64,000 nucleotides of DNA from Escherichia coli. Its GTDB lineage: Bacteria > Pseudomonadota > Gammaproteobacteria > Enterobacterales > Enterobacteriaceae. The stretch lies in assembly GCF_003334385.1 (NCBI RefSeq), contig NZ_QOWN01000002.1. One strand, 5' to 3'. Of this stretch, positions 12,687 through 16,042 are shown piece by piece. Both the position numbers and the translations under genes were made by a program. How positions within the stretch are numbered: position 1 is the first letter of the stretch; each line of letters starts with the position of its first letter. The notes beneath the pieces are model-generated. The model worked only from the letters and a program-made list of their open reading frames with translations. It did no database searches and had not been told where the DNA came from.

Positions 12687-13874
12687 ATGTTCCCTGTTTC
12701 ATCAATTGGTAATGATATTAGTAGTGATTTAGTCCGTCGAAAAATGAATGACCTTCCTGAAAGCCCAACAGGAAATAACCTCGAAGCACTAGCACCAGGT
12801 ATAGAAAAACTAAAACAGACCTCTATTGAAATGGTCACTTTACTTAACACGTTACAACCTGGTGGAAAATGCATTATCACTGGTGATTTTCAAAAAGAAT
12901 TAGCGTACTTACAAAATGTAATTCTTTATAATGCCTCGTCTCTTCGTCTGGATTTTTTAGGTTATAACGCCCAAATTATTCAACGATCGGACAATACTTG
13001 TGAACTTACCATTAATGAACCGTTAAAAAACCAGGAAATATCCACAGGTAATATCAATATTAATTGCCCATTAAAAGATATTTACAATGAAATCAGGAGG
13101 TTAAACGTAATTTTTAGTTGTGGGACTGGAGATATCGTTGATCTATCCTCTCTGGACTTACGTAATGTCGATTTAGATTATTATGATTTCACAGATAAAC
13201 ATATGGCTAATACTATTTTAAATCCTTTTAAATTGAATTCAACAAATTTTACTAATGCCAACATGTTTCAGGTTAATTTTGTTAGTTCAACACAAAACGC
13301 CACAATCTCCTGGGATTATTTACTAAAAATAACGCCTGTTTTAATAAGCATTAGCGATATGTATTCTGAAGAAAAAATCAAGTTTGTCGAAAGTTGTTTA
13401 AATGAGCCTGGAGACATTACCGAAGAACAATTAAAAATTATGAGATTTGCAATTATAAAATCTATACCAAGGGCAACTCTTACAGATAAATTAGAAAATG
13501 AATTAACAAAAGAAATATATAAAAGCTCATCGAAAATCATCAATTGCTTGAACAGAATTAAATTACCAGAGATGAAAGAATTCTCATCAGAAAAAATATA
13601 TGATTACATCGATATAATCATTGAAGATTATGAAAATATCAAAGAAAATGCTTATCTGGTCGTCCCCCAAATTAATTATACTATGGATTTAAACATAGAA
13701 GACTCTAGCTCAGAAGAGTTACTTTCAGATAATACCCTCGAGAAAGACGAAAATTCTCCGGACAATGGCTTTGAGGTCGGGGAATATAACACATATGAAG
13801 CATATAACTCAGAGAAGCAATATTTTACCAGAGAGGACTATACGTATGATTACGACCTTTTAAATGCAATATAG
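12687..13874 (+). CDS. yhaC: Uncharacterized protein YhaC, 395 aa, with a pentapeptide-repeat block and an acidic Tyr/Glu/Asp-rich C-terminal tail
   Basis: Track ORF, AT-rich. Residues ~158-198 (RNVDL DYYDF TDKHM ANTIL NPFKL NSTNF TNANM FQVNF) have a hydrophobic residue at every fifth position. Confidence 0.8.
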   Translation: MFPVSSIGNDISSDLVRRKMNDLPESPTGNNLEALAPGIEKLKQTSIEMVTLLNTLQPGGKCIITGDFQKELAYLQNVILYNASSLRLDFLGYNAQIIQRSDNTCELTINEPLKNQEISTGNININCPLKDIYNEIRRLNVIFSCGTGDIVDLSSLDLRNVDLDYYDFTDKHMANTILNPFKLNSTNFTNANMFQVNFVSSTQNATISWDYLLKITPVLISISDMYSEEKIKFVESCLNEPGDITEEQLKIMRFAIIKSIPRATLTDKLENELTKEIYKSSSKIINCLNRIKLPEMKEFSSEKIYDYIDIIIEDYENIKENAYLVVPQINYTMDLNIEDSSSEELLSDNTLEKDENSPDNGFEVGEYNTYEAYNSEKQYFTREDYTYDYDLLNAI

Positions 13875-13989
13875 ACTTAATAACTTCTTACAAAGTCTAT
13901 TATTAATACCGTAGATATTTATTCATCTTACCCTGTGCACCAAAAGCAAAAACTCACTGACGCGGGTTTGAAACTGATGGCAACCGCAA

Positions 13990-14100
13990 AAATGCCTGAT
14001 GCGCTACGCTTATCAGGCCTACGCCATCTCTGCAATATATTGAATTTGCGTGCTTTTGTAGGCAGGATAAGGCGTTCACGCCGCATCCGGCATGAATAAA
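13990..14100. repeat. REP/BIME element (two palindromic units)
   Basis: gcctgatgcgctacgcttatcaggcctac and ggcaggataaggcgttcacgccgcatccggcatg are classic REP sequences. Coordinates approximate. Confidence 0.75.
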
Positions 14101-14117
14101 GCGCACTCAACAATCTG

Positions 14118-14487
14118 AAACCCGCCGGAACGGTTTATTACGTACATCAGGTAAAACTGACCGATAAGCCGCTTTCTTTTGGGTATAGTGTCGTGGACAG
14201 TCATTCATCTTTCTGCCCCTCCAAAAGTAAAAACCCGCCGAAGCGGGTTTTTACGTAAAACAGGTGAAACTGACCGATAAGCCGCTTTCTTTTGGGTATA
14301 GTGTCGTGGACAGTCATTCATCTTTCTGCCCCTCCAAAAGCAAAAACCCGCCGAAGCGGGTTTTTACGTAAACCAGGTGAAACTGACCGATAAGCCGCTT
14401 TCTTTTGGGTATAGCGTCGTGGACAGTCATTCATCTTTCTGCCCCTCCAAAAGCAAAAACCCGCCGAAGCGGGTTTTTACGTAAATC
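14118..14487. repeat. Three tandem 113-bp direct repeats in the rnpB 3' flank, each with a terminator-like hairpin
   Basis: The unit caggtgaaactgaccgataagccgctttcttttgggtatagtgtcgtggacagtcattcatctttctgcccctccaaaag-aaaaacccgccgaagcgggtttttacgtaaa recurs with a 113-bp period. Each copy shares about 45 nt with the 3' end of rnpB and carries the hairpin aaacccgc-cgaa-gcgggttt. A degenerate partial copy precedes them near 14118. Confidence 0.85.
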
Positions 14488-14864
<377 letters not shown>

Positions 14865-14896
14865 GGCGCGCAGTATAGAGGGTTTGCGCGCCCTTG

Positions 14897-16042
14897 TCAC
14901 CCCGCGTTGCGCATTCCAATCGCCAGTGTCGCGGCGATATTACGTGAAGCACGGCAGATATTGTCATAAGCCCCGCGGAATGCTTCGTCCAACGTACCTA
15001 TGCTGGTCAATACGCTGAAGACCGCATCAATGCCATGCTGATGTACAACGCCAACATCATCGGTCAGGCTACCCGCAATGCCAATCACCGGTTTATGGTA
15101 CTTCTTCGCCACGTTTGCGACACCAATCGGTACCTTCCCGTGAATACTCTGGCTGTCAATACGCCCTTCACCGGTGATCACCAGCGTACAATCGTGAATA
15201 TGTTCCTCCAGATTCAGCGCCGTAGTGACGATTTCAATACCACTTTTCAGTTCCGCACCAAGAAACGCCATTAGCGCCGCGCCCATACCACCCGCAGCTC
15301 CTGCACCGGGGACATCTTTCACATCAACATGCAGCGCTTTTTTAATGACCTCGGCATAGTGAGAGAGGTTATTGTCCAGCTCAACAATCATCGCTTCACT
15401 GGCTCCCTTTTGTGGGCCAAAGATGCGCGATGCGCCGTTATCGCCCACCAGCGGATTGGTGACATCACAAGCGACGCGAATGACGCAATCTTTTAAGCGC
15501 GGATCGAGGCCGGAAATATCAATATCATTCAGAGTATTAAGACTACCGCCGCCAAAACCAATTTCATTGCCGTTGGCGTCGCATAATTTCGCCCCCAGCG
15601 CCTGTACCATGCCTGCGCCGCCATCATTTGTAGCGCTGCCGCCAATGCCGATAATAATGTTTGTCGCACCGCTCTCCAGCGCCTGCAGGATTAACTCGCC
15701 TGTGCCGCGTGAAGTGGTCACGAGTGGATCGCGTTTTTCCGCAGGTACCAGCTCCAGCCCACTGGCCGCCGCCATTTCAATAAACGCGGTTTTGCCATCG
15801 CCGGAGATCCCCCAACTGGCATTCACTTTCTCGCCCAGCGGCCCTGTAACCCAGGCGTGACGTTCAGCCCCCTGGGTGGCTGCAATCATCGCTTCCACCG
15901 TTCCTTCGCCACCGTCGGCAACCGGAACAGAAACGTACTGTGCATCAGGAAAAATTTCCCGAAATCCTTTTTCTATCGCCTGCGCAACCTCGCTGGCAGA
16001 TAAACTTTCTTTATAAGAGTCTGGGGCGATTACGATTTTCAT
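14897..16042 (-). CDS. garK: Glycerate 2-kinase GarK, 381 aa
   Basis: Track ORF 14897..16123; start set at internal ATG giving MKIVIAPDSYKESLSA (glycerate kinase family). Confidence 0.9.
   Translation of the reverse strand: MKIVIAPDSYKESLSASEVAQAIEKGFREIFPDAQYVSVPVADGGEGTVEAMIAATQGAERHAWVTGPLGEKVNASWGISGDGKTAFIEMAAASGLELVPAEKRDPLVTTSRGTGELILQALESGATNIIIGIGGSATNDGGAGMVQALGAKLCDANGNEIGFGGGSLNTLNDIDISGLDPRLKDCVIRVACDVTNPLVGDNGASRIFGPQKGASEAMIVELDNNLSHYAEVIKKALHVDVKDVPGAGAAGGMGAALMAFLGAELKSGIEIVTTALNLEEHIHDCTLVITGEGRIDSQSIHGKVPIGVANVAKKYHKPVIGIAGSLTDDVGVVHQHGIDAVFSVLTSIGTLDEAFRGAYDNICRASRNIAATLAIGMRNAG

Follow-up and report, generated by a model that had tools for sequence, protein, structure and literature searches.

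Results

The 3′ flank of rnpB and its tandem array

In the window, i.e. the whole 64,000-nt stretch of DNA analysed here, rnpB occupies positions 14488-14864 on the minus strand (full-length match to Rfam RF00010, 318.6 bits), with garK as the gene just upstream. A 1,051-bp query around the array described below matches K-12 MG1655 records at 100% identity; the window is E. coli K-12. In the identical K-12 record rnpB is annotated by RefSeq, which has no annotated gene between rnpB and the convergent yhaC in any record inspected. A promoter-like site for rnpB (GTGACA, 17 nt, TATACT) lies at window positions 14872-14900 on the minus strand. It shares part of its first hexamer with the garK stop codon, and its end is 8 nt away from the rnpB 5′ end, on the upstream side.

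The 3′ flank of rnpB contains a tandem array that TRF places at 14118-14510, with a period of 113, 3.5 copies, 96% matches, no indels and a score of 716. The 113-bp periodicity that a previous sequence-only reading had claimed for this flank is thus real and far above chance. That reading had also described the copies as near-identical, each sharing about 45 nt with the 3′ end of M1 RNA and each carrying a hairpin, and these points need to be qualified once the units are dissected.

Anatomy of the repeat units

We phased the units on GATGAATGACTGTCCACGAC and read them in the RNA sense, that is on the minus strand, which applies to all unit coordinates given here. The template for the repeats is formed by the last 49 nt of rnpB (14488-14536). 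They open a 101-nt unit 0 (14436-14536) that continues with a 36-nt trailer containing T1, the intrinsic terminator of rnpB, and with a spacer; judging from the alignments, the gene's own 3′ end is the founder unit. Extra unit 1 (14323-14435, 113 nt) consists of a pseudo rnpB 3′ end with an insert, an intact terminator at 14342-14365 and a spacer, and extra unit 2 (14210-14322, 113 nt) likewise has an intact terminator copy at 14229-14252. The terminal unit 3 (14118-14209) retains an intact pseudo 3′ end while its terminator copy (~14116-14139) is decayed and has no U-tract.

Each extra unit is identical to the last 49 nt of M1 at 47 positions and also matches the following 52 nt, comprising trailer, T1 and spacer. 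Unit dissection and alignments therefore bear out the view that the array duplicates the rnpB 3′ end together with its terminator. The homology to M1 is not one stretch of about 45 nt, however, but two blocks of 20 and 29 nt separated by a 12-nt insert, GCTATACCCAAA (unit 1, 14404-14415; unit 2, 14291-14302; unit 3, 14178-14189), which is absent from rnpB and conserved across genera. When a 12-nt gap is allowed for, units 0 and 1 are identical at 98 of 101 positions and the repeat reaches into rnpB up to 14536. Near-identity holds for units 1 and 2, with 3 differences in 113 positions, but not for unit 3, which differs from them at 20 of 113 positions. Nearly all of these lie in the terminator half: the first 61 nt are kept and 18-19 of the remaining 52 are changed.

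The 61-nt pseudo rnpB 3′ end reads GATGAATGACTGTCCACGAC-GCTATACCCAAA-AGAAAGCGGCTTATCGGTCAGTTTCACCT. Compared with rnpB the extra units carry two substitutions (ACCCGGC to AAGCGGC), located within helix P4 on its 3′ strand. Of helices P2 and P1, the 3′ strands (GACUGUC and GGUCAGUUUC, respectively) are intact in the extra units. No internal sigma-70 promoter was found in the array when both strands were scanned. A sigma-S-like CTATAC occurs within the 12-nt insert, with the -7 T missing in E. coli.

Terminator hairpins in series

T1 (14455-14478, minus strand) has the form AAAAACCCGC-TTCG-GCGGGTTTTT followed by GCTTTT. It folds at -22.6 kcal/mol with z = -4.67, and none of 200 shuffled sequences was as stable. 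The copies in units 1 and 2 fold at -20.8 (14342-14365) and -19.9 kcal/mol (14229-14252). All three are 12-bp hairpins with z values from -3.8 to -4.7 and a U-tract, UUUUUGCUUUU or UUUUUACUUUU, directly after. The distal copy in unit 3 (14116-14139), at -9.8 kcal/mol and z = -0.19, folds no better than shuffled sequences. A GC-rich hairpin with a U-tract, the signature of an intrinsic terminator, is thus found in T1 and two copies, and is missing from unit 3 and from a relic described below. A hairpin in every copy had been proposed; units 1 and 2 have it intact while that of unit 3 is degenerate, and K-12 has three intact predicted terminators in series, not four. The proposed stack of potential terminators nevertheless stands, folding giving three intact hairpins when T1 is counted.

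With an A-run on one side and a T-run on the other, the hairpins also fold on the opposite strand. Plus-strand folding of T1 and the copies gave -15.8 to -20.5 kcal/mol, with T1 at -15.8, and five U residues follow each hairpin. We used folding instead of a consensus terminator scan, which missed all of the hairpins, probably due to stems extended into the A/U runs. T1 has been used and measured by others as an efficient terminator, and published terminator use concerns T1 only. RNase E is reported to mature the M1 3′ end. Literature searches for transcript mapping downstream of rnpB yielded nothing useful.

Two terminator alleles can be distinguished, one with a short loop (TTCG) and one with a long loop (CAGCGTAAAC-type; CAGYGYAARC-type), and both occur in Escherichia as well as in Salmonella. 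The loop alleles are found at differing unit positions: in BL21 unit 0 has the short and unit 1 the long loop, and in SD134209 unit 0 has the long loop.

Surroundings of the array

Two further features lie between unit 3 and the convergent yhaC. The first, at 13993-14092, is a BIME/RIP-type element with two inverted REP sequences that can be read directly (13993-14022 and 14058-14092) and an AT-rich centre; it gives weak Rfam matches to the REP-derived ES036 and naRNA4. Located between the array and the relic, it adjoins the repeat family but is not a member of it, and it accounts for the median of 36 matching places per genome obtained when the whole flank is used as query. The second, at 13921-13975 on the minus strand, is the relic of a former terminator plus spacer, with GATGAAT after it, recognized from alignments to O157:H7 and ST131. 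It does not fold (z = -0.57). In O157:H7 and ST131 the sequence matching the relic comes directly after the last intact terminator, and K-12 therefore retains the remains of an earlier array end.

The AT-rich yhaB/yhaC segment past the array (window 12687-13874 and upstream) varies. In BL21-AI and SD134209 yhaC carries a frameshift, and only fragments of it are left in ST131, where tdcR is also a pseudogene.

Copy number among E. coli genomes

To follow the extra units alone we used a 43-nt probe that spans the insert and is specific to them, and searched 5,426 complete E. coli genomes. The probe matched 3,628 of these at 1-8 places each (median 2), giving 8,231 places, all chromosomal. About one third of the genomes (~33%) have no extra unit, including the ST131, NRG 857C and ST69 records sampled. 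In an evenly spaced sample of 60 carriers, one, two, three and four units were found in 21, 11, 23 and 5 genomes, respectively. The suggestion that the copy number of this array might vary between strains, for which a comparison across genomes had been recommended, is supported, the range being 0-8 extra units.

The single extra unit of O157:H7 EDL933 and the absence of any in O157:H7 ECP19-2498 amount to a difference of exactly one clean 113-bp unit; changes by whole units are therefore recent. A G/A difference at unit position 21 and the short- and long-loop terminators are shuffled among unit positions across strains. One record with seven places, that of Stbl4 (NZ_CP081009.1), consists of a junk stretch of rnpB units, tRNA fragments, transposase fragments and RtT; we regarded it as an assembly artefact and ignored it.

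Since the units duplicate the 3′ end of a stable RNA gene, they could in principle be the att-site scars of an integrative element targeting rnpB in the way that such elements use tRNA and tmRNA genes, and the DNA past the array (yhaB/yhaC and other AT-rich segments) does vary between lineages. We consider this origin highly improbable. The flanks inspected contain no integrase, the tandem units start ~50 nt from the gene with no element in between, and the duplicated segment is broken by the 12-nt insert and continues through terminator and spacer, which is not how an att core should look. In the phage and plasmid collections searched there was also no genuine phage or plasmid with a unit, as all such matches were mislabelled chromosomal DNA. 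An att-site or mobile-element origin was rejected on these grounds.

Homologous arrays in other species

A scan of one genome per species for an rnpB 3′ end followed within 40-70 nt by a unit start detected arrays in E. albertii, E. whittamii, Escherichia sp. E1V33, Citrobacter sp. R56 and K. pneumoniae. Further loci were anchored on garK. Among these, Salmonella enterica has 3-4 extra units after rnpB, homologous to those of E. coli, and K. aerogenes and Phytobacter have one each; no extra unit was found at the garK-anchored loci of C. freundii, C. rodentium, an Enterobacter, Intestinirhabdus and Pseudescherichia. Array presence followed no consistent pattern with the orientation of the downstream gene at the garK-anchored loci. 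The Salmonella repeats have a period of 119 bp compared with 113 bp in E. coli, because it is the long-loop terminator that their internal units carry. A single 119-bp unit separates two Salmonella genomes. Related repeats 3′ of the Salmonella typhimurium rnpB gene were reportedly described by Baer and Altman (Science, 1985), the details being uncertain.

Internal units carry the terminator and spacer of their own species in E. coli, E. whittamii, K. pneumoniae and K. aerogenes, with Salmonella as the exception, where the long-loop terminator of the internal units is unlike the species' own T1. In most species examined the array ends in a partial unit or in a decayed or missing terminator. The single extra unit of Citrobacter R56 and that of K. 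aerogenes have an intact terminator.

The comparison across species also bears on the idea that each unit encodes a small protein of ~38 amino acids (MNDCPRRYTQKKAAYRSVSP...), starting at the ATG in GATGAAT behind a GGAGG-like spacer. Each unit does contain a single ORF, which in E. coli is preceded by GGAGGGG at a distance of 9 nt. Most species conserve the first 20 codons, and the ORFs are now and then annotated automatically as hypothetical proteins. Yet the reading frame is not conserved. In K. pneumoniae a 1-nt deletion in the conserved insert causes a frameshift, and unit lengths differ modulo 3 (113 and 119 leave 2; 117 and 120 leave 0; 118 and 121 leave 1), so that neither the position of the stop codon nor the length of the ORF is conserved. 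The C-terminal halves are unrelated, the Shine–Dalgarno-like spacer is not conserved either, and synonymous positions are no less conserved than others. In addition, a strong terminator lies inside every ORF, both frames are called automatically, and RefSeq has no CDS there. Small-protein genes were accordingly rejected and their existence seems extremely doubtful.

A conserved 61-nt block

When 30 extra units from 15 genomes are compared, the first ~58-61 nt are nearly invariant while trailer, loop and spacer drift. Between unit 1 of E. coli and unit 1 of Salmonella the block is identical at 61 of 61 positions and the remainder at only 40/64 to 44/62; in Klebsiella, Citrobacter and Phytobacter the block is 85-97% identical. 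As a measure of neutral divergence, 91 of 179 four-fold degenerate sites of garK (51%) differ between E. coli and Salmonella.

Part of the block resembles rnpB and could be kept constant by copying from the gene. Eighteen of its positions differ from rnpB, however, and therefore cannot be refreshed in this manner; the chance that all of them stay identical at the neutral rate is 2.6e-6. The rnpB gene of Salmonella ends in GGTCAGCTTCACTT, whereas all its pseudo-copies keep the E. coli-type GGTCAGTTTCACCT, which differs at two positions. Homogenisation by rnpB as the cause of block conservation is thus excluded for Salmonella, and for the 12-nt insert it is impossible in every species. A recent horizontal spread of the units was rejected as well, trailer, loop and spacer of those same units being only 63-71% identical.

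Two readings differ from one centred on the terminators. According to the first, the pseudo-3′-end block would be a selected RNA element and the terminators would be secondary. In RNAs extending past T1, the second copy of the P2 and P1 3′ strands might pair with M1 nucleotides 1-18 without P4, giving an inactive or decay-prone fold, or the block might form a hairpin by itself, with the ACCU that follows mimicking the RNase E/RNase P context of the M1 3′ end. The identity between E. coli and Salmonella, its improbability at the 18 positions and the distinct Salmonella rnpB 3′ end all favour selection. So does the fact that, going by the sequence and by the M1 secondary structure, the strands retained in the block are precisely those that base-pair with the 5′ end of M1, and RNAalifold predicts a 10-bp closing helix inside it. 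Covariation does not follow suit: RNAalifold found none in the 61-nt block, where pairs are either invariant or broken without compensation, and compensatory changes occurred only in the terminator stem (2 pairs). Nor is there a match to a known RNA family, since at the gathering threshold or at E <= 10 Rfam returned only rnpB fragments and REP-derived families. Moreover, the element is lost in many lineages, and terminal units gather substitutions in some of them. We regard an RNA element of this kind as a tentative possibility.

In the second reading the array is functionless in itself, a neutral side product of slippage or recombination beside a conserved gene. A copy number ranging from 0 to 8 with ~33% of E. 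coli genomes having none, the absence of units from five sampled genera and the decay of the distal terminator and the relic are all in keeping with neutrality. On the other hand, ~50% divergence would be expected between E. coli and Salmonella and the block shows no difference at all, including the 18 positions that rnpB cannot refresh; the element also persists in Escherichia, Salmonella, Klebsiella, Citrobacter and Phytobacter. Pure neutrality appears unlikely to us. From the alignments, the block seems to be under selection, although many lineages have lost it.

Discussion

The array analysed here is located immediately 3′ of K-12 rnpB and has a period of 113 bp, ~3.5 copies, homology to the M1 3′ end and a terminator-like hairpin that is decayed in unit 3. 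Repeats in this position, with their ORFs, were reportedly described by Reed and Altman (PNAS, 1983), and the array is with high confidence that very repeat, as locus, organism, 113-bp period and ~3.5 copies are the same. The sequence-only reading was right in linking the array to the repeats historically reported 3′ of E. coli rnpB. Its interpretation holds in the main, apart from corrections to the strand, the insert and the decayed distal terminator. We put a probability of about three in four on the reading as a whole, namely an already known 113-bp repeat of E. coli that acts as a stack of terminators and changes by recombination. There is nothing new in the array as such. It is the rediscovery of a K-12 feature of 1983 and changes little in itself; what is added beyond that description is the census of 5,426 genomes, the anatomy of founder and terminal units and the comparison across genera. 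Also beyond the sequence-only reading are the 12-nt insert, the decayed terminator at the distal end and an ancient unit common to Salmonella, Klebsiella, Citrobacter and Phytobacter. The conservation of the 61-nt block is a modest remaining question.

The anatomy of the units and the population data suggest how the array may have come about. Through an ancient duplication, T1 would have come to be followed directly by a pseudo-copy of the rnpB 3′ end. This pseudo-copy would have kept the P2 and P1 3′ strands and had a mutated P4 strand and the 12-nt insert. The real 3′ end and the pseudo-copy would then constitute direct repeats, and unequal homologous recombination or replication slippage, between the real and the pseudo 3′ ends as well as between units, could lead to the gain or loss of whole units, each exchanged unit comprising a pseudo 3′ end, a terminator and a spacer. 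The presence of species-own terminators in internal units and the decayed array ends fit recombination between rnpB and the downstream pseudo-copy. We infer that recombination of this type probably underlies the gain and loss of units.

With respect to function, the array would catch polymerases reading through T1 and would block convergent yhaC transcription before it reaches the essential rnpB gene. Given that the hairpins fold on both strands, it should stop transcription from both sides. We propose that the most likely effect of the array is fail-safe termination in two directions around the strongly transcribed and essential rnpB gene. Against a need for back-up terminators stands the existence of lineages without extra units, and such terminators are therefore dispensable. 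The lack of a link between array presence and the orientation of the downstream gene also speaks against this role. The terminator role also leaves unexplained why it is the non-terminator half that is conserved best.

One way to account for this would be that the 61-nt block is a functional element of Enterobacteriaceae that has been under purifying selection since about the time of the E. coli/Salmonella split. A plausible role for it would be that of an M1 3′-end decoy or mimic within read-through transcripts, and the array would then be a recombination side-effect of keeping such a block beside the gene that it imitates. We consider this conceivable but would not favour it at present. If it were true, the block in read-through RNA might base-pair with the 5′ strand of M1 or attract RNase E or RNase P, and rnpB read-through could be coupled to RNA quality control or to RNase P autoregulation. 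Should the block act on read-through transcripts, RNase P or RNase E, it would represent a novel form of cis-encoded control over an essential ribozyme. The puzzle is that a 61-nt imitation of a ribozyme 3′ end is conserved like the ribozyme itself across several genera and is yet dispensable in many lineages.

The terminator and recombination reading that we prefer finds its nearest analogue in design in the tyrT-rtT repeats. These are 178-bp tandem repeats downstream of an E. coli tRNA-Tyr gene, each of which repeats the 3′ end of the gene, and a processed RNA, RtT, is documented for them. Both loci have a stable RNA gene followed by tandem units repeating its 3′ end, small ORFs noted historically and a copy number that would change by unequal recombination. 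The sequences are unrelated, however, the tyrT-rtT unit is longer, and to our knowledge no RNA product has been documented for the rnpB units, unlike RtT. Tandem terminators such as rrnB T1-T2 similarly place hairpins with U-tracts in series after a strongly expressed stable RNA gene, but those of rnpB are copies of one another that derive from a duplicated unit including part of the gene, and their number differs by strain. Like REP and BIME elements the array is repetitive intergenic DNA. While those are dispersed genome-wide, the 113-bp unit is confined to the rnpB locus, adjoining rnpB at every locus inspected, and occupies 1-8 chromosomal places per genome rather than many dispersed ones. 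Elsewhere in the window, the Rfam matches that exceeded the gathering score were the SraG sRNA (57804-57975, plus strand), a ribosomal S15 leader (58205-58319, minus strand) and the REP-derived naRNA4 (59832-59902, minus strand).

From a practical point of view, the array is a natural variable-number repeat (0-8 units) beside an essential gene, and it offers naturally occurring tandem copies of rnpB T1, which is in wide use as a vector terminator. It can confuse both assembly and annotation, as automatic annotation calls its ORFs genes and contaminant or mislabelled records contain its units. Mislabelled carriers included 'plasmids' of 0.35-5.4 Mb typed as non-mobilizable, unannotated 2.5-kb fragments named 'Salmonella phage S.Kent' and a contig of an S. 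houtenae genome. Enterobacterial rnpB units were also present on a 289-bp contig with 0.59x coverage in an assembly labelled Microvirga antarctica, probably as contamination.
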